A stretch of DNA of 64,000 nucleotides, taken from positions 2,368,001 to 2,432,000 of the forward strand of contig OZ251459.1 of NCBI GenBank assembly GCA_965242525.1, written 5' to 3'. This document shows positions 5,565-25,824 of this stretch, piece after piece. How positions within the stretch are numbered: position 1 is the stretch's first letter; each line of letters begins with the position of its first letter. The notes beneath the pieces are model-generated. The model saw only the letters and a program-made list of their open reading frames with translations. It was not told the DNA's origin and did no database searches. The stretch is from an uncultured Candidatus Binatia bacterium (GTDB taxonomy: Bacteria > Desulfobacterota > Binatia > UBA9968 > JAJDTQ01). The translations under genes were made by a program, and so were the position numbers.

Positions 5565-5671
5565 GGCCACGAAATTGCGGGCGGCCCCTATGGAAATTCC
5601 GTGCGTTGTCGATATACAATAGCAGGACAACGGGCTCCATGACGGAGGGAGGAAAGCGAAGGAGAAGCCCG

Positions 5672-6139
5672 ATGGAGTGGATGACGATCCTGCAGGCCGT
5701 GGTCACCGTCGGCTTCGCCGTCCTCGCGCTGGCGGTGACCTTGATGGGGAAGCGCTTCGACGACATGCGCGGGTCCACGGACAACCGCTTCGACGACACG
5801 CGCCATCACACAGACACTCGCTTCGAGGCCGTGGAAAGGCGCTTCGATGACGTGGACCAACGTTTCAACACCGTGGACAAGCGCATCGACGACATGCGCC
5901 ATGACATGGACGAACGCTTCCGCGGCGTGGACAGGCGTTTCGACGACATGGAGAAGCGTTTCGAGGATATGGAGAAACGCTTCGACCAGCGTTTCGAGAA
6001 CATGGACAAGCGCTTTGAAAACATGGACAAGCGTTTCGACGACATGGACAGACGTTTCGACGACATGGCGAAGCGCTTCGACGACATGCGTGGATACCTG
6101 CTGCACGAGCGCGGAGGCGACAGGCCCAGCGCCGCCTGA
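5672..6139 (+). CDS. N-terminally membrane-anchored coiled-coil repeat protein (RFDDMDK-type repeats)
   Basis: TM segment ILQAVVTVGFAVLALAVTLM, then ~15 RF(D/E)xM(D/E)K/R repeats of 7 or 11 residues; AAGGAG upstream. Confidence 0.8.
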   Translation: MEWMTILQAVVTVGFAVLALAVTLMGKRFDDMRGSTDNRFDDTRHHTDTRFEAVERRFDDVDQRFNTVDKRIDDMRHDMDERFRGVDRRFDDMEKRFEDMEKRFDQRFENMDKRFENMDKRFDDMDRRFDDMAKRFDDMRGYLLHERGGDRPSAA

Positions 6140-6167: not shown

Positions 6168-6917
6168 TTACTTCCGGTCCCTCTTGTTGTCCAAGTACTC
6201 GCTCTGGTCCTTGTAGGCTTCGGCGTCGTAGAGCTCCCTGTCGATTCGATGCAGCAGGTCCTCCCCGGCCACGATGATCTTGCGCTTTTCCGAGACGCCC
6301 TTCCGCGCTAGGGAGATGTTGCGCCGCAGTGACCGTCGGACCACGCCCCTGGTGTCCCAGAACTCCGGAGTGAAGTCCCTGTAGCCGTCCTGGGTCGCCC
6401 TGGCCAACAGGGACAACCCGCCCTTGTAGCTCTCGAGGCCCGCTTCGTCGTCGCCCTGCTGCAACTGGGTCAGTCCCATGACCAGCCAGCCGATCTCGTC
6501 CTCCCGGTTCACCGCCAACGCCCGCGTGAGCACGTCGTAGGCGGCCCGGTACCTGCCCGCGTAATAATAGGCCCGCCCGAGTTGCGTCAGGCTGTCACGG
6601 TACTTGGGGTCCCTGCGGACCACGTACTGGAGGTCCGCGATGGCCTTGCGCGAGTTCCCGCCCTTCCGGCTCTTGCGCAATTCGTCCACGGCGTCGTTGT
6701 ACTTGCCGCCGACGCCGAAACCCGCCGGCCTCCAACACCCCGCCGTGCCCAGGTTCAGGGCTACCAACGCGGCCGCGACCGCCATCCACGCAGTCCTCTT
6801 CGGAAACCCTGAACGATTCCGGCTTGAACCGCATCTCCCTGCGGGAAAGCGCGTCCTTCGACTTCGCTTCGCTACGCTCAGGATGAACGGGGATAATTGT
6901 TCCGAGTTTCCCTTCAT
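6168..6917 (-). CDS. TPR-containing lipoprotein whose signal peptide carries an in-frame MITE insertion
   Basis: GAGG RBS before ATG 6917; lipobox-like GTAG-C; TPR-like helices (LTQLGRAYYYAGRYRAAYDVLTRAL). Confidence 0.75.
   Translation of the reverse strand: MKGNSEQLSPFILSVAKRSRRTRFPAGRCGSSRNRSGFPKRTAWMAVAAALVALNLGTAGCWRPAGFGVGGKYNDAVDELRKSRKGGNSRKAIADLQYVVRRDPKYRDSLTQLGRAYYYAGRYRAAYDVLTRALAVNREDEIGWLVMGLTQLQQGDDEAGLESYKGGLSLLARATQDGYRDFTPEFWDTRGVVRRSLRRNISLARKGVSEKRKIIVAGEDLLHRIDRELYDAEAYKDQSEYLDNKRDRK
6802..6911. mobile_element. MITE copy (110 bp) with CTTC target duplication
   Basis: Ends GGAAACCCTGAAC...GTTCCGAGTTTCC; CTTC at 6798-6801 and 6912-6915; contains the REP-like core. Confidence 0.85.
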
Positions 6918-7140
6918 CTTCGATTCCTCGTCTTGCGCATGTCTTCGGGATTCCGAACCCCTCGGAACCCCGCCATCGTACACGTGTAGCGCATACGGCT
7001 ACCCGTAACCGTATAATCGAGAAACCACCCGCGGTCAAACCTGCCGTCGCTGTCCCCGCCCCCTCTCCCGCCCGAAACCCGGTTCCGAGTCGTTGACATG
7101 CAGCGGGCGAAGACGATAAGCACCGTTGTCAACATCGGAA

Positions 7141-7283
7141 GGGAACCCTGAACAATCACCTCCGTTCGTCATGAGCGTAGCGAAGCGAAGTCTCCCGTTC
7201 ATCCTGAGCGTAGCGAAGCGAAGTCGAAGGACGGGCTTTCCCACAGGGAGATGCGATTCGAGCCGGAATCGTTCAGGGTTTCC
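7141..7283. mobile_element. MITE copy with GGAA target duplication
   Basis: Ends GGGAACCCTGAAC...GTTCAGGGTTTCC; GGAA at 7137-7140 and 7284-7287. Confidence 0.8.
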
Positions 7284-7397
7284 GGAAGGGAGCTGCGCCA
7301 TGACAGGGTTCGAAGCCGCGTCCGCCGCCTGCCGGAACGCCGAAGCCTTGCGGTCGCTCGTCAAGGGCATGGAGACCGCGCATGGGGTCCGGGCCGA

Positions 7398-8351
7398 ATG
7401 AACAGATCCGAACTCGACCGCGTTGTCTTGTCTTCGGCGATGGCTTCCAACACCAAGCTGGCTTATGAAAAGGGCTGGGCCTGTTTCGCCGCGTACTGCG
7501 CCAACGAAAACATCGACGACCCCTTGGCGGCCTCTCCCGACTCCGTGGCCCTTTTCCTGGTTCACTGCGCCACACGGCCCCGTTCCACCAACGGCGTCCC
7601 CCTGTCCATGGGCACCGTCGTCCTCTACAACAGCGCCATCACCAAACGCTACGCCGACGCCGGCAAGACCTCGCCCACCCATCACCCCCTCGTCCGGGCG
7701 ACCCTCAAGGGGCTGGCCCGCGCCAGGGGCACGGCCCCCCGGCGAGTCAAGGCTTTGCGCGAGGAGCACATCCGGGCCATGATCGCCCGATGTCCCGACT
7801 CGGTCATCGGGGTCCGTGACGCCGCCCTTCTCGCCCTCGGCTTCGCCGCGGCCTTGCGCCGGTCGGAACTCTGCGGGTTGTCCGTGGACGACGTGACCGT
7901 CCTGCCGCAGGACCGGGACCATCCCCGGCGGATGCTGCTGACCATCCGCCGGTCCAAGACGGACCAGGCCGGCAACGGCCAGACGATCCCCATCCCGGAA
8001 GGCCGGCTGATTCGCCCCATTGCCCGCGTGCAGGATTGGCTGTCCGCGTCCGGCATCACGCGCGGGCCGCTGTTCCGGGCCATGAGACGGGGCGGCTCCG
8101 TGCAGGAGGGACCGCTGCACAATTCGGACGTTCCGCGCCTGGTCAAGCGCTACGCCGCCCTGATCGGCCTGGACCCCGGGGAGGTGTCGGGCCATTCGCT
8201 GCGGGCAGGCTTCGTGACCAGCGCCGCGGCGCACCGCGCCCGCCTCGACAAGATCATGGCCATCACCCGCCACACCAACCCCGCTACGGTCCTGAAGTAC
8301 ATCCGTGACGCCGAAGCCTTCGCCGACCACGCCGGCGACGGGTTCCTGTAA
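7398..8351 (+). CDS. Tyrosine recombinase (Cre-like), candidate invertase for the adjacent porin switch
   Basis: Catalytic set: LRRSEL (R), RRSKTDQ (K), GHSLRAG (HxxR), TRH (H), KYIR (Y); N-terminal NT..AY...W..F core-binding motif. Confidence 0.92.
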   Translation: MNRSELDRVVLSSAMASNTKLAYEKGWACFAAYCANENIDDPLAASPDSVALFLVHCATRPRSTNGVPLSMGTVVLYNSAITKRYADAGKTSPTHHPLVRATLKGLARARGTAPRRVKALREEHIRAMIARCPDSVIGVRDAALLALGFAAALRRSELCGLSVDDVTVLPQDRDHPRRMLLTIRRSKTDQAGNGQTIPIPEGRLIRPIARVQDWLSASGITRGPLFRAMRRGGSVQEGPLHNSDVPRLVKRYAALIGLDPGEVSGHSLRAGFVTSAAAHRARLDKIMAITRHTNPATVLKYIRDAEAFADHAGDGFL

Positions 8352-8375
8352 ACGTTGCCAGCGCCGCCTGCCCAC

Positions 8376-8562
8376 GGAAACCCCGAACAAACATCCCCGT
8401 TCGCCCTGAGCATGGCGAAGCGAAGCATCCCGTTCGTCTGAGCGTAGCGAAGCCCCGTGTCCTGGGGGGAAAAGTGAAGTTCCCCGTGTCCTGAACATGG
8501 CAATGTGAAGTCCCCCCGTTCGTCCTGAGCGTAGCGAAGCGAAGTCGAAGGACGCGCTTTCC
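8376..8562. repeat. Cluster of REP-like core repeats with one MITE end
   Basis: GGAAACCCCGAACAA followed by several CCCGTTCGTCCTGAGCGTAGCGAAGCGAAG variants; abuts the recombination site. Confidence 0.75.
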
Positions 8563-8565
8563 ATA

Positions 8566-8593
8566 GTCCTCGGTTATCTACCTAACTGAGGAC
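8566..8593 (+). other. Putative site-specific recombination site 1 (11-bp arms, 6-bp spacer)
   Basis: GTCCTCGGTTA-TCTACC-TAACTGAGGAC; arms are 10/11 inverted repeats; identity with the porin gene begins exactly at the spacer. Confidence 0.8.
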
Positions 8594-9748
8594 AACAACG
8601 AGGAGGGCTACCAGCAGGGCCAGATCCGGATTCGGCGGTTCCGCCCGTCCATCAACGTGACCTCGCAGCAGGGCTTCTACGAAGTGAGGTGGACCTTCAA
8701 CGGAAACAGCGCAGCCTTCGATGGCGACGGCTACCTCCACTTCGAGAAGATGAACCCCTACCTCCCCACGGTGGGATTCGGGTTCAATCCCAGTATCACG
8801 GGCTTGAACGAGAGCGCCTATCGGGTTGAAGACTCCATCCTCGCTGACACTCTGGCTTTCGCAGGGAGCCAGGACCGGAGCCTCGTGTTCGCATGGAACA
8901 AGCTCCCTGCCATGGGAACCGCGAAGGTCGCTTACCTGAACTTCGCCATCGGCCATGACGAGAAGCCGGTCAGCGCCAAGGATACGTATATGGGCACGAC
9001 CGCCTCGGGTGAAGCCGTCACCGTCACGGGTCCCTCGAGGGGGACGGACGAGTACGCGAGGCACCCGGCCGTCACCGACAACTCCCGTTCGATGCTCGTT
9101 ACCCTCGGACTGAAGCCCCTTGGCGCCGCCAAGGCGATGGGGGGCATCGATATGTCCAGCTTCCAGTACGATTTCGCCTACGAGAACCTGAGGAACAGTT
9201 ACAACGAAGGCGGCTTTGCAGGCGGCCTCTGGACCGTCAACGCCACCAAGAATGTCAAATTGGCCAGCCTTGGAAGCGCTGTAGGTGACCACACCTTCGT
9301 GGGGCACGGCCTCCAATGGAGCCCCCTAAAGCCAGTGTCTCTTGCCACTCATTTCATAGACTGGAAGGCCGACGCCGACGCGGGCGTGGCGGCCGACCTG
9401 CGGGCCACCGAGTGGAGGGTTGCGCTCAACATATGGCTGTGGGGTCCCAAGAGCGGCATGATGGGCGGAAGCAAGAGCGAAGGCGGCATCTCCACCTCTC
9501 CGATGTATTCCGTAGTGGACCTGAAAGACATGGGCACCGCACCCAATGGTGTTGCCAAGCCCATCGGCGAAGTGAAGAACCTGGGGTGGGCGGTCGTGTA
9601 CAATGTCCCCGGCGGCTGGATGCAGATCCACGGTATCTGGGACAGGTACGAGTGCGACCCGCAGATTTGTGACCCCGCGGTGGCGCTGGTATCCGAAAAC
9701 GGCAAGTCCTTCAGCACCTTCACCCTGGTCGCAGAGTACAGGTTCTAG
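8576..9748 (+). other. Silent porin C-terminal cassette B (beta-barrel; no own start or signal peptide)
   Basis: Open frame YLTEDNNEEGYQQGQIRIRRFRPS...LVAEYRF homologous to residues 100-463 of 14078-15469; in-frame TAG at 8564-8566 just upstream. Confidence 0.88.
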
Positions 9749-9766
9749 GGTCATCGTTTCGGCTTG

Positions 9767-9823
9767 AAAAGGAGAGAAGGAAGGGCATCCTTTCGGGGAT
9801 GAGCCTCCTTCTCTCCTTTTTTT
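9767..9823 (+). terminator. Intrinsic terminator after cassette B
   Basis: AAAAGGAGAGAAGGA...TCCTTCTCTCCTTTTTTT stem plus T tract. Confidence 0.8.
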
Positions 9824-9909
9824 CTCTCAGGAGGGTTGCAATGAAGGGAACGATTTTGGCGTTGGCGGTAGCAGGCGTGTTGAGTGGATTTAAGGAAGGA
9901 AGGCATCTT

Positions 9910-10209
9910 ATGACACAAATCACGACAGCGACACACGATACGCTCGGTCGTAGCAAAAGGCGTTTGGTTGTACGGGGTCTTGCGTACATCCTCACCGTCG
10001 TCGCTATTGTCTCCGTTGTCTCCGTACTGTTTCGTTTCGACTCGGTGGAAGCGCAGACAACATGCACAAGGGGGGAGGCCGCCGCCGAAGCAGTGAGGCT
10101 CCAAGGCGGATATGTGATATCGGTCTCTCAAAGAAATGGGGAATTTGTCGTCCAAATGATCGACGGTAACGGCAAGCACAGGGAGATCAAAATCCTGCGG
10201 AAATGCTGA
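9910..10209 (+). CDS. Small exported/membrane protein (possibly PepSY-like)
   Basis: AAGGAAGG upstream; hydrophobic segment ending VEA-Q; low-GC DNA. Confidence 0.5.
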   Translation: MTQITTATHDTLGRSKRRLVVRGLAYILTVVAIVSVVSVLFRFDSVEAQTTCTRGEAAAEAVRLQGGYVISVSQRNGEFVVQMIDGNGKHREIKILRKC

Positions 10210-10970
10210 AGGCTGCAATTCTTCATGGGAGGTGCCGAATGTTTCGCAAGCCGAACGACATTTTTGCTTCCAACAAAGGCTTGGCGGCCACACGCTTGGT
10301 ACGACACTGGAAACTTGTGTTTTGGCGACTACTCTGGTTTATTGCAATTACAGTTTTGTTCGGACACACTTTAGGTTTGCCTTTCAAGCAAACGGAGCCT
10401 TATCTAACACAAGACATCCATCTTCTTGGTCAGATGTTGCGTTTTGAAATAGAAAACAAGATGAACAACGGAGACACAGAGCAACAAAGTGACAACGATG
10501 ACGGAAGGATCAAGAAGAAGAAGGCGGAGATGATTAGCAAGATTTCGCAAAACCTATTGACCGGCTTAAGTGCTACCTGGTACTTTGTTTGTGTTACTCA
10601 TAGCGGAGAATTCTTGGCAGGAGCCCCAGCGTCCGCCAAGCATTGGTGCGATGGAGATACCATAGAGAAGCATTCTTCTGGTAATCTACACAAGAAGTAC
10701 TATGTTGTGCAAGCGCGTAAGTCCGGAGGTATAGAGATACCTACAACGCTCCATTCTGTGAAGGATGGATATGGAAGCGGCTTTCACCTCTGGGTGGTTA
10801 AGAGACTTCAAGCAGAGCAAGTAGATCCGATATATTATTTGATCCAAAATAACTTTGTTCATGTCGTGCTGATACTTGGAATAATAGTGCTTTCCACGTA
10901 TGCTCTAGGGCATTTCATTCGGCAGGAAAGTCGATCCAAGAATGATTCCGGCGGAGAAAGAGTCGACTGA
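10203..10970 (+). CDS. Two-TM protein with extracytoplasmic domain (possible truncated sensor)
   Basis: TM near the N-terminus (LLWFIAITVLFG) and near the C-terminus (FVHVVLILGIIVLSTYALG); AT-rich. Confidence 0.55.
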   Translation: MLKAAILHGRCRMFRKPNDIFASNKGLAATRLVRHWKLVFWRLLWFIAITVLFGHTLGLPFKQTEPYLTQDIHLLGQMLRFEIENKMNNGDTEQQSDNDDGRIKKKKAEMISKISQNLLTGLSATWYFVCVTHSGEFLAGAPASAKHWCDGDTIEKHSSGNLHKKYYVVQARKSGGIEIPTTLHSVKDGYGSGFHLWVVKRLQAEQVDPIYYLIQNNFVHVVLILGIIVLSTYALGHFIRQESRSKNDSGGERVD

Positions 10971-11203
10971 ACCCTGCGATACAGAAGGGTTATGGGCAAG
11001 AGGTGATCGAACCACTCCATTGGAGATACACATCAAGGATACCGAGATGGAAGTAGATGGCGTCACGGAAGCGCTGGCGATTGCGATAGCTGCAGACACG
11101 GTGCCCCAACCCCTGGAGGTGCTGTTTCGCAGGGCCGCGAACTCTTTCCACCGCTGACGCTTCAGGTTCTCGGGGTTCCCGAGCCACGGGTAGCGGGCGC
11201 CTT

Positions 11204-11878
11204 TCAGCCGTTGCGCCCCTTCTCCCGGCAGCTTGCGCTGTTCCTGTCGCCACGCAAGCTACTTCCCGTCGCTCTCAGAAAAGCCCCTGTCCGAGATTCG
11301 TCCTTCAGGAATCGGGTCGCCTCGCCCATGTACAGGCAATTACGCATCTGTTGCCGGGACAGGGGGACCCCGCCGTTCACTCGCTCGAAGATGTCCAGTC
11401 GAGCCTGTTCGGGAACCTTCGCGTCGATGACGTACAGGATCAGGTTGCAGTCCTCGACGCGATTTTGTAGCTTGGGCGTCAGATCTTCGAATTTCTTGCT
11501 GTTCAGTTCGGGCCGGTCCTCAAGTCAAAGCTGGAGTTCGTTGTTCACGAAACGCTGGAAGGTGGTCAGCCTTTGCAGCCCGTCCACGACCACCAGACGT
11601 TCCCGGTCGTCCTCCGCGAGATAGAAGACGGGCAGAGGGATCCGCATCACCACGGACTCGATCAGTCTGCTCTGCTTGTCCGGATCCCAGATGAAGTCAC
11701 GCTGGAAGGCCGGATCCATCACGAAGGCTCCCCGCTCTATCCTGCGCAGAACATCGTGCACAGTGCGGGTCTCGTTCCGTATCAGCAGGGTGTCGATGGG
11801 ATAGTCGCCCCAGGAGGCGGCTTTGTCGTCTCCCAGACCTTCGATCTTCTCAGGCTCGGTGTCGGTGGGTGTCGTCAT
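11204..11878 (-). pseudogene. DUF262 (GmrS/ParB-like) protein with an in-frame nonsense codon
   Basis: FQRDFIW and VVVDGLQRLTT motifs, TGA at 11525-11527, then the same frame continues to IFERVNGGVPLSRQQMRN. Confidence 0.8.
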
Positions 11879-11980
11879 GTTACTTGCCCTGTGTTGACCA
11901 GGCGTAGCGCACATCCCGGCCCACGTACCTGGCCAGACGCGAAAGGGTGGCGGCGCCGGCCGTTACCGGCGCGGCAGATG

Positions 11981-12259
11981 CTACCACTCCCAATACCAGG
12001 CGGAGAGAATGTCGCGGCCCACGTAATCGACCAACCGCCAGAGGACGACGGTGGCGGCCAGACAGAGCGCGGCCACGGGGATGGTGAGCCACCACCACCA
12101 GAAGCCGACCAGGTAGCCCAGGACGGCCAGAATCAGCAACGCTCCGGTCGTCCCTCCCGCAAGTCCCATGACTCCCATAACGACAAGCTGAAGGTCGAGC
12201 TTCCCGGCGTCACTCATACGGGCAAGGCGGCGGTCCAGCCGTGCTTTCAGGCGTGTCAT
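11981..12259 (-). CDS. Small hydrophobic membrane protein
   Basis: GGGAGGGAG RBS; two hydrophobic segments. Confidence 0.55.
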   Translation of the reverse strand: MTRLKARLDRRLARMSDAGKLDLQLVVMGVMGLAGGTTGALLILAVLGYLVGFWWWWLTIPVAALCLAATVVLWRLVDYVGRDILSAWYWEW

Positions 12260-12291
12260 GGCGGTTCTCCCTCCCGTGGCGGCGCCGGCCG

Positions 12292-12804
12292 TTACTGGCG
12301 CGGCGCGGTCCGTTCGATGACGGCCTCCATGCTCTTGACCGCGGCGCGCAAGCTCTCGCCCTGCTGCCGTAGTGCTTCCATTGCTTCGGCGTGGCGCTGG
12401 TCAGCTTCGGCGCGCTGCGCTTCGGCTTGGTGGCGCTGCGCTTCCATCTGCGCCTCGACTTGGCGGCGCTGCGCTTCCGTCTGCGCTTCGATCTGGCGGT
12501 GCTGCGCTTCGGCTTGGCTGCGTTGTGCTTCGGCTTGGCGGTGCTGCGCTTCGATCTGCGCTTCGATCTGGCGGTGCTGCGCTTCGGCTTGGCTGCGCTG
12601 CGCTTCTATCTGCGCTTCGATCTGGCGGGCGCGGTCCCGGTTGGACCTGTCCATGACCCGGATACCCCGGAGGACCACGAAGATCTGACCGAGGCCCACC
12701 AGTCCGGTGACGAGCGGGATGGCGACAGCGGCCCAAAACTGTAGCTGCTGCAAGGCAAGCGCGGCCTGCTGGTAGGCTACCGTTGCGGCTTCGAACTCCG
12801 TCAT
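12292..12804 (-). CDS. Membrane-anchored EAQ-repeat coiled-coil protein (paralog of 25000-25824)
   Basis: MTEFEAAT start, TM segment, EAQRSQA/EAQHRQIEAQI repeats, C-terminus VIERTAPR. Confidence 0.8.
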   Translation of the reverse strand: MTEFEAATVAYQQAALALQQLQFWAAVAIPLVTGLVGLGQIFVVLRGIRVMDRSNRDRARQIEAQIEAQRSQAEAQHRQIEAQIEAQHRQAEAQRSQAEAQHRQIEAQTEAQRRQVEAQMEAQRHQAEAQRAEADQRHAEAMEALRQQGESLRAAVKSMEAVIERTAPRQ

Positions 12805-12877
12805 GGCGTGTCTCCCTTCCTCCCCTCCGGCAGCGGCCGCTACTGGCCCGGCGCTGCATGGCCGTAGCGCAACCTGG

Positions 12878-13015
12878 CAAGCGCGTCCTTCGACTCCGCT
12901 TCGCTACGCTCAGGACGAACGGGGATGGGACGCTTCACTACGCCCGGGACGAACGGGGACAGGAGGATCAGGATGAGGGAATCCATCCTGGACGTCTCGA
13001 TTGTCCAGAGGTTCC
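12878..13015. repeat. Partial MITE / REP-like repeat
   Basis: Core TCCTTCGACTCCGCTTCGCTACGCTCAGGACGAACGGGG and right end CGATTGTCCAGAGGTTCC. Confidence 0.7.
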
Positions 13016-13145
13016 TATCGTCTTCGACCGCCGCCTGTCAACGACCCGGACCGAGGTTCCGTGCGGGAAGGGTTGCCGGGAGTGCGAGGGCAAGGCGATG
13101 TTTCGTTCGGTCGGGATGGGAGCAAAGCGGGGCCACGGCAGCAGC

Positions 13146-13553
13146 TCAACGCCGTCCTTCGATCTCGTTCCGGGCCGCGCTGGACAGGAAGGCCGAGCGG
13201 GTCATGCCGCGGCGCTTCGCTTCGTCGTCGATGGCCTGGAGCAGGCCGTAGTCCAGAGAGACGTTGACACGCCGCGGAGAACCCTTGTCGAGGACGAGAG
13301 GAACGAAGGCCATGTCCGAGCCTTCCCGCCACTCGGCAAGGCTCGGGTCGGCCTTGATCTCCCCGACAGCGCGCGGTTCCGGGACCGCTTCCCCGTCCTC
13401 GATCATGCCCTCGACGTGAAAGGCCAACGCCGCGGCGCCGCGTTGGATCGTCTCCTCCACGGTGTCGCCATCCGATACACACCCGGGAAAGTCGGGGAAG
13501 CTGATGCCGAAACCGGGGCCGTCACCACCGTGGATGAACGCGACGTAGCGCAT
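13146..13553 (-). CDS. hicB: HicB antitoxin
   Basis: FGISFPDFPGCVSDGDTVEE motif; C-terminal RHH RVNVSLD...IDDEAKRRGMTRSAFL. Confidence 0.92.
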   Translation of the reverse strand: MRYVAFIHGGDGPGFGISFPDFPGCVSDGDTVEETIQRGAAALAFHVEGMIEDGEAVPEPRAVGEIKADPSLAEWREGSDMAFVPLVLDKGSPRRVNVSLDYGLLQAIDDEAKRRGMTRSAFLSSAARNEIEGRR

Positions 13554-13565
13554 GGGATCCTCCTT

Positions 13566-13754
13566 TCACTTCCAGCCAGCCTGCCTGTAGATCGAGACAA
13601 CCGTACCTCGTTTGAGGTCCCTGTTCGGGTGGGGCACCGTGACGCGGCTTCTTCTGACAGGATTCTTGAACTGGTAATGACTGCCCCTGGTGGCGACAAG
13701 AAACCATCCATCCCGTTTCAAGAGCCTGATCAACTTGCGACTGTCACGTTCCAT
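13566..13754 (-). CDS. hicA: HicA mRNA interferase toxin
   Basis: LLKRDGW....RGSHYQFK, VTVPHP..DL..GT..SIYRQAGW. Confidence 0.92.
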   Translation of the reverse strand: MERDSRKLIRLLKRDGWFLVATRGSHYQFKNPVRRSRVTVPHPNRDLKRGTVVSIYRQAGWK

Positions 13755-13766
13755 GCCCTGCCATCT

Positions 13767-13786
13767 TTGTGTATTAAAATACACAA
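13767..13786. promoter_or_regulatory. Palindromic operator upstream of hicAB
   Basis: TTGTGTATT-AA-AATACACAA perfect 9-bp inverted repeat 12 bp before the hicA ATG. Confidence 0.7.
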
Positions 13787-14020
13787 TTTCGACAGCTCGG
13801 ACAACCACCCTGAAGACCTCTCCAGGACTCTGTGTGGGTATAGACCGGTAACATGGTTTACACGGCAAGGGGTGTCGGCAAGGAGGGAGAGATAAGCGCG
13901 CCCTTCGACTCCGCTTCGCTACGCTCACTCAGGACGAACGGGGACAGGAGGGTCAGGATGAGGGAATCCATCTCCAAGGGGTGAAGCGGTTGGACGGGGG
14001 CGAGGGGCGGGGGCGGACGT

Positions 14021-14052
14021 AAAAAGGGGCCGTCCCCGGAAGGACAGCCCCT
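14021..14052 (-). terminator. Intrinsic terminator after the intact porin gene
   Basis: Minus strand AGGGGCTGTCC-TTCCG-GGGACGGCCCC-TTTTT. Confidence 0.8.
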
Positions 14053-14077
14053 CTTGTTTCAAGCCGAAACGATGACC

Positions 14078-15469
14078 CTAGAACCTGTACTCTGCGACCA
14101 GGGTGAAGGTGCTGAAGGACTTGCCGTTTTCGGATACATCCTCCACGTTGTCGGCACACACCAACGGGTCGCACTCGTACCGGTCCCAGATACCGTGGAT
14201 CTGCATCCAGCCGCCGGGGACATGGTACACGACCGCCCAACCCAGGTTCTTCACTTCGCCGATGCCCTTGTCAGCGCCCTCGTCGTCCACGCCGGTGTCC
14301 TTGAGGTCGATGACGGAATACATCGGAGAGGTGGAGATGCCGCCTTCGCTCTTGCTTCCGCCCATCATGCCGCTCTTGGGACCCCACAGCCATACGTTGA
14401 GCGCAACCCTCCACTCGGTGGCCTTCAGGTCAGCCGTCACGCCACTGTCGGCGTCGGCCTTCCAGTCGATGAAATGGGCAGCCAACGAGACCGGCTTGAG
14501 GGGACTCCACTGGAGGCCGTGTCCCACGAAGGTGTGGTCGCCCACAGCCTTTCCGAGGTTGGCCAACTCGACCTGCTTGGTGGCGTTGGTGGTCTTGAGC
14601 ACGGCGGCGCCTTCGTTGTAACCGTTGCTCAGGCCCTCGTAGGCGAAGTCGTACTGGAGGCTGCTCATGTCGATGCCGCCCATGCTCTTGGAGGCGCCAA
14701 GTGGCCTCAGGCCGAGGGTGAAGAGCATCGAACGGGAGTTGTCGCTGACGTCTGGATGCTTGCCGTACTCATCCATTTCGTCGTGGCCGATGGCGAAGTT
14801 CAGGAAGGCGACCTTCGCGGCTCCCATGTTGGGGAGCTTGTTCCATGCGAGCACGAGGCTCCGGTCCTGGCCTCCGGCGAAGCCCAGGTTGTCAGCGAGG
14901 ATGGAGTCTTCAACCCGGTAGGCTCCCTCGCTCAAGCCCTTGATGCTGGGGTTGAACCCGAATCCCACCGTGGGGAGGTAGGGGTTCATCTTCTCGAAGT
15001 GGAGGTAGCCATCGCCATCAAAGGCCGCGTCTTGGGAGCCGCCGCCGTTGAAGGTCCACTTCACTTCGTAGAAGCCCTGCTGCGAGGTCACGTTGATGGA
15101 CGGGCGGAACCGCCGAATCCGGATCTGGCCCTGCTGGTAGCCCTCCTCGTCGTTGTCCTCCGTTAGGTAGAATGTCGAGAAGAGCTGCAGCCTCTGGGTG
15201 AAGTTGATGCTCCAGTTGTTGTCCGCGGCAGCGATGGTCAGGCCCTTGCCGGCGCCGTACTTGAAGCTCGGCATCTTCATCTCGGCGGCGAGGGCGCGCT
15301 CTTCGTCAACCGTCTCCTGCCTCTGCTTCAACTCGGCGATCTGGCGCTCCAGGTCGGCGATCTTGGCATCCACCTCGCTGGCCTGTAGCGGGGATGCCGC
15401 AAACGTCATTGCTCCAACCAAAAACAGGGCACTCGCGATGCCAAGCGCCCGCCTCGAGAGTTTTTTCAT
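14078..15469 (-). CDS. Outer-membrane porin (OprO/OprP-like), complete version A
   Basis: AAGGAGGAGG RBS, signal peptide ending LQA-S, periplasmic coiled coil, IRIRRFR motif, amphipathic strands, C-terminal YRF (BAM signature). Confidence 0.85.
   Translation of the reverse strand: MKKLSRRALGIASALFLVGAMTFAASPLQASEVDAKIADLERQIAELKQRQETVDEERALAAEMKMPSFKYGAGKGLTIAAADNNWSINFTQRLQLFSTFYLTEDNDEEGYQQGQIRIRRFRPSINVTSQQGFYEVKWTFNGGGSQDAAFDGDGYLHFEKMNPYLPTVGFGFNPSIKGLSEGAYRVEDSILADNLGFAGGQDRSLVLAWNKLPNMGAAKVAFLNFAIGHDEMDEYGKHPDVSDNSRSMLFTLGLRPLGASKSMGGIDMSSLQYDFAYEGLSNGYNEGAAVLKTTNATKQVELANLGKAVGDHTFVGHGLQWSPLKPVSLAAHFIDWKADADSGVTADLKATEWRVALNVWLWGPKSGMMGGSKSEGGISTSPMYSVIDLKDTGVDDEGADKGIGEVKNLGWAVVYHVPGGWMQIHGIWDRYECDPLVCADNVEDVSENGKSFSTFTLVAEYRF
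15155..15182 (-). other. Putative site-specific recombination site 2, inside the porin gene
   Basis: Minus strand CTTCTCGACAT-TCTACC-TAACGGAGGAC; same spacer and 10/11 right arm as site 1, inverted orientation. Confidence 0.78.
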
Positions 15470-15704
15470 GACCTCCTCCTTCTAACCGAAAGTGTGCCGA
15501 CACGGGAACGTCGGCCCGGAACGAACAAAAATCTTACGGGAAGTTATCTACTAATTCTACGGCCCTCCCGCAACTGACCGAAAGTACACTTTTCCCCGAA
15601 AACACCCTGTCAACGGTTCAGAGGGATAGGCCGAAAGTTGCAAACATCGACAAAAATGGGTAGAGTGTCGCCGAACTTGTGGAAAACATCGGAGGATTCC
15701 AGCC

Positions 15705-17930: not shown

Positions 17931-18281
17931 ATGTCTCCCGAGTTCATCGCCGTCATCGGCGCCGCCATCGCCCTTGCCGCGGTCATCCTTTCCAGCCAAC
18001 GGGCCATGCGAAAGGAAATCAGCGACATGAGGCAGGAAATGGGCGGCATGGGGAAAGAAATGGGCGACATGAGGAAGGAAATGTACCAGGAAATCGGTAA
18101 ACTGCGTCAGGAAGTACGCCAGGAAATCGGCAAGGTGCACCAGGAAATCGGCAAGGTGCACCAGGAAATCGGCGACCTGCGGGAACGAATGGCGCGCCTC
18201 GAAGGGATGTTCGAAGGGTTCACGAGAACCATGCCGGGCCGTCAACCCGAGGCCGCGCCAAGCCCCCAATCTCCGCAGTAG
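17931..18281 (+). CDS. Small membrane-anchored coiled-coil repeat protein
   Basis: MSPEFIAVIGAAIALAAVIL TM segment, then MRKEISD/VHQEIGK repeats and LRERMARLEG. Confidence 0.8.
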   Translation: MSPEFIAVIGAAIALAAVILSSQRAMRKEISDMRQEMGGMGKEMGDMRKEMYQEIGKLRQEVRQEIGKVHQEIGKVHQEIGDLRERMARLEGMFEGFTRTMPGRQPEAAPSPQSPQ

Positions 18282-24999: not shown

Positions 25000-25824
25000 A
25001 TGACGGAGTTCGAAGCCGCCACCCTCGCACTACAACAGCAGCAGCTTTGGGCCGCTATCGCCATTCCGCTTGTCGCCGCATTGGTGGGCCTCGGTCAGAT
25101 CCTCGTGGTGCTCCACGGAATCCGGGTCATGGACAGGTTCAACCAGGATCGCGCCCGCCAGATCGAAGCGCAGATAGAAGCACAGCGCGGCCAAGCCGAA
25201 GCGCATCGCCGCCAGGTCGAAGCGCAGATGGAAGCACAGCGCCGCCAAGCCGAAGCGCGGATGGAAGCACAGCGCGACCAGGCCGAAGCGCAGCGCGAGC
25301 AGGCCGAAGCGCAACGCCGCCAAGTCGAAGCGCAGACGGAGGCGCAGCGTGAGCAGGCCGAAGCGCAACGCCGCCAGATCGAAGCACAGACGGAGGCGCA
25401 GCGCGAGCAGGCCGAAGCGCAACGCCGCCAAGCCGAAGCGCAGACGGAGGCGCAGCGTGAGCAGGCCGAAGCGCAACGCCGCCAAGTCGAAGCGCAGACG
25501 GAGGCGCAGCGTGAGCAGGCCGAAGCGCAACGCCGCCAAGTCGAAGCGCAGATGGAGGCGCAACGCGAGCAGGCCGAAGCGCAGCGCCGCCAAGCCGAAG
25601 CGCAGATGGAAGCGCAGGAACGCCAAGCCGAAGCGCAACGCCGCCAAGCCGAAGCGCAGCGCGCCGAATCTGACCAGCGCCACGCCGAAGCAATGGCCGC
25701 CCTCCAAGTGCTCATCAAGGGCCAGGACAGGCAGGCCGAAGCCTTGCTTGCCGCGGTCAAGAGCATGGAGCGGCAAGCCGACGCGCTCAAGGTGGTCATC
25801 GAACGGACGGCGCCCAGGGTTTGA
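25000..25824 (+). CDS. Membrane-anchored EAQ-repeat coiled-coil protein (long paralog)
   Basis: MTEFEAAT start, TM segment, many EAQREQA+EAQRRQVEAQT (7+11) units, C-terminus VIERTAPRV. Confidence 0.82.
   Translation: MTEFEAATLALQQQQLWAAIAIPLVAALVGLGQILVVLHGIRVMDRFNQDRARQIEAQIEAQRGQAEAHRRQVEAQMEAQRRQAEARMEAQRDQAEAQREQAEAQRRQVEAQTEAQREQAEAQRRQIEAQTEAQREQAEAQRRQAEAQTEAQREQAEAQRRQVEAQTEAQREQAEAQRRQVEAQMEAQREQAEAQRRQAEAQMEAQERQAEAQRRQAEAQRAESDQRHAEAMAALQVLIKGQDRQAEALLAAVKSMERQADALKVVIERTAPRV

Follow-up and report, generated by a model that had tools for sequence, protein, structure and literature searches.

In the Moraxella Q/I pilin and phage Mu G segment inversions a fixed promoter and 5′ gene part serve two invertible 3′ parts, and the recombinase, Piv (IS110-type) or Gin (a serine recombinase), is encoded outside the invertible segment in a two-way switch such as we propose here, the targets being pilin or tail-fibre genes. 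A different kind of site, dif, has an 11-6-11 geometry. More generally, programmed inversions have been described as inverted repeats in two coding sequences with a recombinase nearby, in a survey drawing on RefSeq species whose main text names as known targets SusC-type outer-membrane proteins, pilins, PilV, HsdS and Eco57I-type enzymes (Milman, Yelin and Kishony 2023, PMC9881135). That main text has 0 occurrences of the word 'porin' and leaves the recombinase family and site treated below undefined, and the supplements hold about 11,000 predicted loci. [quoted passage not shown] In the literature searched, outside which lay most subscription papers and all supplements, neither a paper on the system described here nor an inversion switch for the Pseudomonas OprO/OprP porins was found.

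The window, i.e. the whole stretch of 64,000 nucleotides that was analysed, contains the following features of a locus which we consider likely to be a two-way coding-sequence DNA inversion switch for a porin of the OprO/OprP fold:

7398..8351, + strand: Cre-like tyrosine recombinase gene (317 aa; PF00589, E 5.5e-14)
8564..8566, + strand: in-frame TAG directly 5′ of cassette B
8566..8593, + strand: predicted recombination site 1, 11-6-11 with near-symmetric arms, spacer TCTACC at 8577-8582
8577..9748, + strand: headless porin cassette B, 389 codons from the Tyr100 equivalent, with a 27-aa insertion in loop L4
9766..9828, + strand: terminator-like hairpin and U-run of cassette B (-35.6 kcal/mol, z -4.35)
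9823..13754, no strand assigned: cargo of the putative invertible segment, largely different in the related species G023
within 9823..13754: cargo, two low-GC ORFs without assigned function and two small ORFs of repeated genus-wide families
11525-11878, - strand: cargo, GmrSD N-terminal fragment
13146-13553, - strand: cargo, hicB
13566-13754, - strand: cargo, hicA
14016..14055, - strand: terminator-like hairpin and U-run of the expressed porin gene (-26.4 kcal/mol, z -4.28)
14078..15171, - strand: cassette A, the intact porin gene's variable portion with 15 barrel strands and 8 outer loops
15155..15182, - strand: predicted recombination site 2, inside codons 95-104, spacer TCTACC at 15171-15166
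15172..15469, - strand: constant head, residues 1-99 (secondary structure from the model)
15470..15600, - strand: porin ribosome-binding site and presumed promoter region, outside the putative invertible segment

An earlier note on this DNA had described an intact porin gene and a second, startless copy behind an in-frame TAG, with its own terminator and with identity between the copies starting at a TCTACC spacer. ORF calls, frame and coordinates confirm this picture: the complete gene (14078-15469, - strand) encodes 463 aa, cassette B is open from the codon at 8579 to 9748 and is followed by the hairpin with U-tail, and the inverted homology of the two copies begins exactly at 8577/15171 (127 nt, 98%). 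Site 1 reads GTCCTCGGTTA-TCTACC-TAACTGAGGAC and site 2 (15182-15155, minus strand) reads CTTCTCGACAT-TCTACC-TAACGGAGGAC. Inverting 8577-15171 in silico at the common spacer reproduced the predicted in-frame fusion of the 99-aa head to cassette B, with the junction FSTF-YLTEDNNEEG and a length of 489 aa instead of 463 aa, and the distance from the recombinase stop codon to site 1, put at about 215 bp in the earlier note, was measured as 214 bp. The whole genome contains two sites and two porin copies. Scanning for sigma-70 promoters gave no hit at the porin, whose upstream region has motifs common to the single-copy porin genes of the genus. A simple terminator scan reported neither of the two porin-copy hairpins, despite their strong folds. 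A REP-like repeat adjoins site 1.

With respect to the known systems, the locus is probably a gene-altering programmed inversion, a well-known class, and neither an Rci shufflon nor an Xer/dif system. Set beside the description in the main text of PMC9881135, it has inverted repeats in two coding sequences, the tail-to-tail layout and the repeat near the 5′ end, a 5′-truncated second copy from which inversion restores an in-frame gene, and a nearby recombinase, which is however unlinked in G023. The logic of the R64 shufflon, invoked in the earlier note, is retained insofar as a tyrosine recombinase would join one fixed N-terminal part to either of two C-terminal parts at sites that include an asymmetric in-gene one; it does not extend to site, enzyme or segment number, since the geometry is 11-6-11 with a nearly symmetric site 1 rather than 12-7-12, the enzyme ends 16 residues past Tyr301 and so differs from Rci with its extra C-terminal domain, and there is one segment with two sites at a chromosomal locus instead of four segments. 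Compared by gene layout as given in the D. nodosus paper, that species has four linked omp1 genes and the window two cassettes with one head.

The recombinase can be aligned with Cre from residue 30 to residue 306 (best E 3e-5) with a core-binding and a catalytic domain, and its R-K-H-R-H/W-Y set is complete (R154, K187, H266, R269, H292 and Y301, read from the sequence against an XerD alignment), in agreement with the Cre-like identity first assigned to it. Its relatives on plasmids comprise 2163 records, all below 60% identity, of which the 15 listed are annotated as 'integrase' or unannotated; in JGI metagenome contigs 11 loci were found, all distant (25-41% identity), and a pattern search of these contigs for site 1 gave 0 matches.

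The modelled porin (pLDDT 74) is a 16-stranded barrel with an N-terminal periplasmic extension, and its top three Foldseek matches are of the OprO/OprP type (E 4.5e-17 and 2.4e-16 for the OprO/OprP structures, TM 0.59-0.65, 16% identity), so that the earlier OprO/P-like assignment is borne out at the level of the fold. By sequence, no porin family match was obtained in Pfam or NCBIfam at E up to 0.1, nor any match in a PDB sequence search with a 30-sequence profile; according to the model the protein thus has an OprO/OprP-type fold but is not a sequence member of the phosphate-selective porin family. The constant head comprises, in the model, a helical coiled coil, periplasmic strands and barrel strand 1, and its N-terminus appears signal-peptide-like. 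What had been called a swap of the beta-barrel would therefore be one of 15 out of 16 strands and all 8 outer loops, with strand 1 staying in the head. Most of the divergence between cassettes A and B lies in the surface loops, with differences at 41 of 124 outer-loop positions, compared to 15/184 strand positions and 5/56 periplasmic-turn positions. Cassette B is under purifying selection, with a dN/dS of 0.25-0.37 against the other three cassettes (0.37 at a dS of 0.28), and has an intact 389-codon frame.

Relatives of the recombinase adjoin head-to-head porin pairs in 9 genomes, type IIG restriction-modification cassettes in 2 and DUF1302 outer-membrane gene pairs in 2, and appear to run other such switches; the sites at all three layouts are 11-6-11 with a common arm. 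All sites of the family align in this way, with the 11-bp arm consensus TWACCRAGGAS. In a blind test, the best-scoring arm match in each 20-kb locus of two genomes from a different family marked an inverted-repeat boundary of a DUF1302 gene pair lying around the recombinase. Between genomes G136 and G066 orientation is the same, with no flip seen. In the present genome the type IIG gene (C1:1.59 Mb) contains a single TaqI_C region and lacks both a second cassette and a site, and hence no second target was found.

The arm motif also gives the sites of the window their weight. A palindrome by itself is weak evidence for a site, because 205 palindromes of 11-6-11 with at least 10/11 matches occur in chromosome C1; it is rather the position of site 1 and its score with profiles of foreign sites that count. 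With a profile built solely from such sites, 18 of them from head-to-head porin pairs and 4 from type IIG cassettes, site 1 is rank 1 of 4,149,035 genome positions, and it is still first with a profile from only 4 restriction-modification arms (25.2 bits, next best 16.4). Site 2, which has one good and one degenerate arm, ranks 67-81 with three of four foreign profiles and 997 with the promoter-site-only profile. A spacer length of 6 scored best across the genome when the right-arm or the all-arm profile was used, but not with the promoter-only profile. Each of the two sites occurs once in the 4.23-Mb genome with up to 5 mismatches allowed. The CTA Leu codon that both copies keep inside the site is indeed unusual: in long ORFs of high GC3 within the first 1.5 Mb of C1 it makes up 0.9% of the 32,961 Leu codons counted. 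In the single-copy porin of genome G003 the same FYLT is written with CTC, a common codon.

The earlier note had suggested a search of related genomes for the same site at further porin cassettes; G023, a second species, has the same two-cassette layout. Its silent site reads GTCCTCGGTTA-TCTACA-TAACCAAGGAC, i.e. the non-coding left arm of site 1 is identical (11/11) and the DNA further upstream diverges, and both of its sites carry a common spacer of its own. The recombinase of G023 lies 1.9 Mb away from the porin locus, with no inverted repeat of at least 100 bp within about 10 kb of it. Among 27 genus relatives, which as kin are not independent, a close recombinase relative is encoded in 10/10 with inverted porin copies (adjacent in 9) and in 1/14 with single or tandem porins, where it is sited at a restriction-modification cassette. 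Recombinases 94-97% identical to that of the window were found in 5 cases on contigs equal in size to those of headless cassettes, equal size being a proxy for the same contig and three of these contigs measuring merely 5.7-8.4 kb; in the clade of this genome the recombinase is intact and apparently linked to the locus.

On the reading which we prefer, one promoter and one 99-residue head would lie outside a 6.6-kb segment with two tail-to-tail cassettes, and the adjacent Cre-like recombinase would bind the 11-bp arms and exchange strands within the common 6-bp spacer. Flipping the segment would fuse the head to cassette A or B and alter 15 of the 16 barrel strands and, most of all, the outer loops, and homologous exchange between cassettes would add loop mosaics. 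Judging from these sequence features the neighbouring enzyme probably can flip the segment and so swap the exposed surface of the channel, and we infer that it does so, that flipping continues in this strain and that it serves to vary either permeability or a surface receptor involved in recognition by phages or a host.

Comparative support for a phase switch comes, besides G023 and the family motif, from cassettes that are found both joined to a head and headless in related assemblies. For proteins P0002-P0315, whose junctions are known at protein level only, the closest such pair is P0132/P0134 (99.7% over 328 aa), followed by P0153/P0156 (96.7%), P0140/P0011 (96.4%) and P0125/P0143 (93.7%); the near-identical pairs belong to the G023 clade, and the best pair in the clade of this genome reaches 89.8%. 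On contigs of equal size 16 headed/headless pairs were counted, this genome and G023 among them. For this strain, the contigs of runs X1 and X2, at depths of 48 and 284, show a single orientation: an unbroken contig spans site 2 as it is oriented in the window. The flip is absent among the 15 joints listed for these runs, a further 56 lying outside that listing and REP-like repeats dominating the joint table, and assembled contigs drop rare variants. All 15 runs available consist of contigs; four of them were compared with the locus, and gaps in the cover of X5 and X6 were left out of account. In addition, the long-L4 type, which includes B, is headed in 0/29 scored proteins and headless in 9/30, and the short-loop type is headed in 24/29. 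Since the flip is unseen in X1 and X2 and the long-loop type is headed in none of the scored proteins, switching looks strongly orientation-biased or rare, the bias probably being towards the short-loop form.

This bias, together with the failure to see the flip in contigs, would also be expected if cassette B were mainly a silent donor for RecA-dependent gene conversion or homologous inversion, and site and recombinase were vestigial or rarely acting. In line with this alternative the cassettes are loop-by-loop mosaics, headed cassettes are mostly closest to other headed cassettes, and the recombinase is unlinked in G023. Moreover, loop-1 residues move with the cassette in 3 of 4 headed/headless pairs, the exception being P0153, whose loop 1 is unlike that of its silent relatives, as could result from crossing over beyond the site on its downstream side. 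However, a silent donor leaves unexplained why the second copy is truncated precisely at a site of the family type, the top-ranking one of the genome, why two species share a non-coding arm, why both copies retain rare codons containing TA and why the recombinase is intact and apparently linked in this clade, and we therefore regard it as unlikely.

Far less probable still is that host XerC and XerD act on the dif-like sites and that the adjoining recombinase is a bystander. The 11-6-11 spacing does match dif, as the earlier note had pointed out, two other genes with strong scores among the only 3 PF00589 genes of the genome are probably XerC and XerD, and in G023 the Cre-like gene is far from the locus. 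The likeness does not go beyond spacing, though: the dif candidate near the GC-skew maximum, ATGTCTGATAA-TGTATA-TTATGTCAACT, shows no resemblance to the site arms, the enzyme scores 33.6 and 30.7 bits with the XerC and XerD models (cut-offs 329.6 and 335), and four kinds of target share the arm motif, in each case next to a member of the Cre-like family. That cassette B arose as a partial duplicate now in decay or as an artefact of assembly, with the palindrome a by-product of duplication, as the 205 similar palindromes and the REP-like repeat abutting site 1 might suggest, is largely refuted and hardly credible in view of the dS of 0.28, the dN/dS of 0.37 and the intact frame, of contigs from two samples that match portions of cassettes A and B with 0 differences and at comparable depth, and of the recurrence of the layout in G023 and in the 16 headed/headless pairs.

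Beyond the inversion switch itself, it is possible, and tentatively proposed here, that the Cre-like invertases, as a family not described before, constitute a portable switch module of these symbiont-like bacteria with at least four kinds of target that was recruited twice to the porin locus, once to flip a promoter lying between two full genes (the head-to-head pairs) and once for a coding-sequence barrel swap with the site written into codons 95-104. Such a module would use a single arm code with a free 6-bp spacer, loop shuffling would add variation, and phage or host recognition would drive the variation of the porin surface. Two independent origins at this locus are suggested because the window porin clusters with single-copy porins (SH-aLRT 95), its recombinase clusters with restriction-modification-linked copies (support 94-95, with distant rows and long branches), and the recombinase lies on the opposite side of the porin locus compared to the head-to-head genomes.

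Most known cases of programmed inversion in surface proteins come from pathogens and gut bacteria, and the present case would extend them to a porin barrel and to an uncultured lineage of sponge metagenomes, with one locus showing a route from promoter flipping to coding-region swapping. It also brings to light an uncharacterised family of Cre-like recombinases with sites predicted from four target types, which makes activity, directionality and spacer orthogonality directly testable in E. coli, and the A/B pair may serve as a natural loop-swap series for finding out what acts on the porin surface.

The elements described for this locus in an earlier note are all present at their positions in the window, where each of the two 28-bp sites is composed of two 11-bp arms and the 6-bp spacer TCTACC:

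7398-8351, plus strand: tyrosine recombinase gene
8566-8593: site 1, beside cassette B
8577-9748, plus strand: cassette B, a second porin copy lacking the head (the constant residues 1-99)
14078-15469, minus strand: intact porin gene (463 aa) with cassette A
15182-15155, minus strand: site 2, inside the intact gene

Cassette B, which is preceded by an in-frame TAG, is homologous to A from the first base of the spacer (8577/15171) through its stop codon at 9748, and the in-frame 489-aa fusion predicted earlier was reproduced by a computed inversion at TCTACC. Neither the porin, the site nor the recombinase has a third copy anywhere in the genome. Taken alone, the site palindrome is unremarkable, as 205 equally good palindromes occur in the chromosome (C1). 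From the sequence data, the recombinase probably inverts the 6.6-kb segment by crossing over at the TCTACC spacers, so that two porin forms, the short-loop one being favoured, would be made from a single promoter and head.

The segment also carries an intact hicAB pair (13146-13754) and an N-terminal GmrSD fragment (11525-11878); the cargo of the corresponding segment in the related genome G023 is mostly different. A family of REP-like palindromic repeats is spread throughout the window (e.g., 6794-7291, 8376-8562 and 12876-13016), the families listed including 15 copies in one direction and 10 on the opposite strand; it lies on both sides of the recombinase gene and stops a few bases short of site 1. 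Several small ORFs that begin with a hydrophobic stretch and contain coiled-coil repeats of 7, 11 or 18 residues in tandem (1184-1903, 5660-6139, 12292-12804, 17931-18281 and 25000-25824) belong to at least two recurring families, also found in G023.

The protein is not identified as a porin by any of the sequence libraries searched. Its AlphaFold2 model (pLDDT 74, pTM 0.71), based on 30 aligned sequences, has OprO (E 4.5e-17) and OprP (2.4e-16) as its best matches, at a TM of about 0.6 and 16% identity, in agreement with the proposed OprO/P-like nature of the protein. Going by the strand order of the model, the crossover falls where barrel strand 1 ends, which leaves the invertible segment with the other 15 strands and with every one of the eight outer loops. 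With outer loops assigned from this model, A and B differ at 41/124 outer-loop, 15/184 strand and 5/56 periplasmic-turn positions, both insertions in B fall within outer loops, and the outer loops have a mean column entropy of 0.86, versus 0.32 and 0.25 elsewhere (61/63 related cassettes). Judged from this loop variation, the switch may serve to vary a surface receptor (phage or host recognition) or permeability. The four cassettes of the present genome and G023 give, in all six pairwise comparisons, a dN/dS of 0.25-0.37 at a dS of 0.27-0.39, which indicates that cassette B is old and under maintenance. On a 4.06-Mb chromosome that also bears a headless cassette (P0157), one headed porin is broken in two (P0128 and P0126) by an apparent frameshift, either a sequencing error or an off state.

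A porin 83% identical to that of the window is encoded at locus L061. The porin is present in 24 of 27 genus relatives, as a window-type arrangement in one (G023), two full genes head to head in nine, a tandem pair in one and a single gene in 13. A close recombinase relative occurs in 12 of the 27; it adjoins the porin pair in 9/9 head-to-head genomes, the remaining holders being G023 (1.9 Mb from the porin), G018 (porin locus, at a contig end) and G011. A search of related genomes for the same site heading porin cassettes, as had been proposed, was borne out by G023, which has both the layout and, in non-coding DNA, a silent site whose left arm is 11/11 identical to that of the window; its spacer is unlike that of the present genome and has changed in both G023 sites together. 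Candidate sites also accompany other targets:

L022:9570/9885, L023, L024, L025, L029, L030, L031, L032, L082: head-to-head porin pairs of nine genus relatives
L076:9772-15470; L075:1405-10425: type IIG restriction-modification cassettes, Eco57I + TaqI_C gene with adjacent recombinase paralogue
L089:6144-13879; L090:6556-13753: DUF1302-like pairs, recombinase within a 2.7-3 kb segment with family-type sites at both ends

At the head-to-head loci, a repeat starting with TAA-CTCTGA-TTACCAAGGAG precedes both genes (18/18 sites, two with one mismatch), and these identical-spacer sites enclose an intergenic segment of 290-400 bp with the recombinase alongside. The predicted promoter in this segment points toward the recombinase-proximal gene in three genomes and toward the distal gene in six; these pairs are likely promoter-inversion switches seen in both orientations across species. 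The right arm also occurs in some single-copy porin genes, overlapping the ribosome-binding site, and is therefore in part ancestral leader. At L022:7694-7906 and L030:9813-10063, short extra porin fragments lie between recombinase and porin pair in G006, and one porin copy of G027 has an insertion near residue 68. In G010 and G011, a further recombinase copy adjoins an Eco57I/TaqI_C gene whose second TaqI_C cassette is headless, and each type IIG locus has its own spacer (AGCGAT or CGCAAT), common to both its sites. By its start and end blocks the expressed cassette type of G010 is the silent type of G011; the middle block disagrees. The G011 gene is broken by IS elements, and one DUF1302-like copy of L090 appears frameshifted.

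With a profile built from 22 foreign sites (18 head-to-head, four restriction-modification), site 1 ranks first among 4,149,035 positions (24.9 bits versus 16.4 for the next); it is also first with only the four restriction-modification arms, and 27th with the promoter arm alone. Site 2 ranks 67-81, and 997 with the promoter arm. Among 300 genomes of the class only two hits fell outside the genus, and these served as a blind test. Both have the recombinase between a divergent pair of outer-membrane-type genes (DUF1302 in the single intact copy that was scanned), and the top arm per 20-kb locus falls at a repeat boundary, GTCGTCGGTAA-GCCGCA-TTACCACGGAG, the left arm GTCGTCGGTAA matching that of site 1 at 9/11 positions. 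Going by the motif, this enzyme would act on the sites.

As claimed, the recombinase is Cre-like (residues 30-306 align to Cre) and has a full catalytic set; the genome has three PF00589 genes in all, this one included. Its family is large, with 120 relatives among the matches listed (P0163-P0282), all at least 59% identical, some named from Gammaproteobacteria and Poribacteria. In a quick tree of residues 64-230, the window porin clusters with those of G023 (98) and of G013 (95), a single-copy genome, apart from the head-to-head groups; the recombinase clusters with the restriction-modification-linked copies (94-95), with two distant rows inside on a very long branch. Together with the position of the G023 recombinase, next to genes that flank the type IIG island in the present genome, this suggests that the enzyme may have been recruited a second time, from a defence island to the porin locus.

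As to whether the segment switches, the best 120 of 177 homologues plus 16 expanded clusters gave 31 headed and 33 headless cassettes of the porin subgroup, with 16 headed/headless pairs on equally long contigs. The same cassette does occur headed and headless, at identities of 99.7% (P0132/P0134, 328 aa) and, in three further pairs, 93.7-96.7%, all of these pairs coming from G023-clade strains; in five cases, recombinases 94-97% identical to that of the window are on contigs equally long as those of headless cassettes. The long loop-4 type of B is headed in 0/29 and headless in 9/30 scored proteins (five pattern misfits excluded). Five samples with parts of the stretch are labelled as sponge metagenomes (shares 0.24-0.41), and pieces in one (X6) measure 350-720 bases with 5-17 differences. 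In the orientation check proposed earlier, contigs of two samples (X1, X2) span site 2 unbroken in the window orientation, which shows only that this orientation is present. These contigs and the loop-4 counts argue against frequent switching. Related cassettes are mosaics of loop variants, which means that homologous exchange is at work beside any site-specific flip; that B is instead a silent donor for homologous recombination is the main rival, and rather unlikely. Action of Xer recombinases at the sites is a poor fit and very improbable; decay or artefact fits poorly too and is hardly credible. By the membership tests the locus falls outside Xer/dif, whose geometry was noted earlier for the sites.

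On a larger scale, cumulative GC skew flips between about 2.38 and 2.8 Mb, even though dnaA lies at 3.47 Mb and the dif candidate near 1.19 Mb; the regions concerned are the window beyond about 19800 (C1:2.388 Mb) and C1:2.81 Mb. The two are joined in G006 and G018, so that the present genome may have either a scaffolding error or an inverted stretch of about 0.43 Mb. A family of 2-kb paralogues, present more than 30 times and often as tandem or inverted pairs, occupies C1:0.32-0.37, 0.93-0.96 and 1.07-1.29 Mb.

Systems for further comparison are Moraxella pilin, Mu G and the 1995 omp1 model. The porin switch would work like the R64 shufflon, in line with the earlier comparison; the locus falls outside Rci/sfx, the R64 recombinase and site, as these are described in PMC11852207. 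In PMC4196234, site-specific inversion is proposed to switch forms of a major outer-membrane protein at the Dichelobacter nodosus omp1 locus. Sequence criteria for gene-altering programmed inversion are set out in PMC9881135, and the locus, a real observation, agrees with them. No report of such a porin switch was found in the literature searched; supplements may list porin targets. The gain is an uncharacterised family of invertases with a site that is now predictable and testable.
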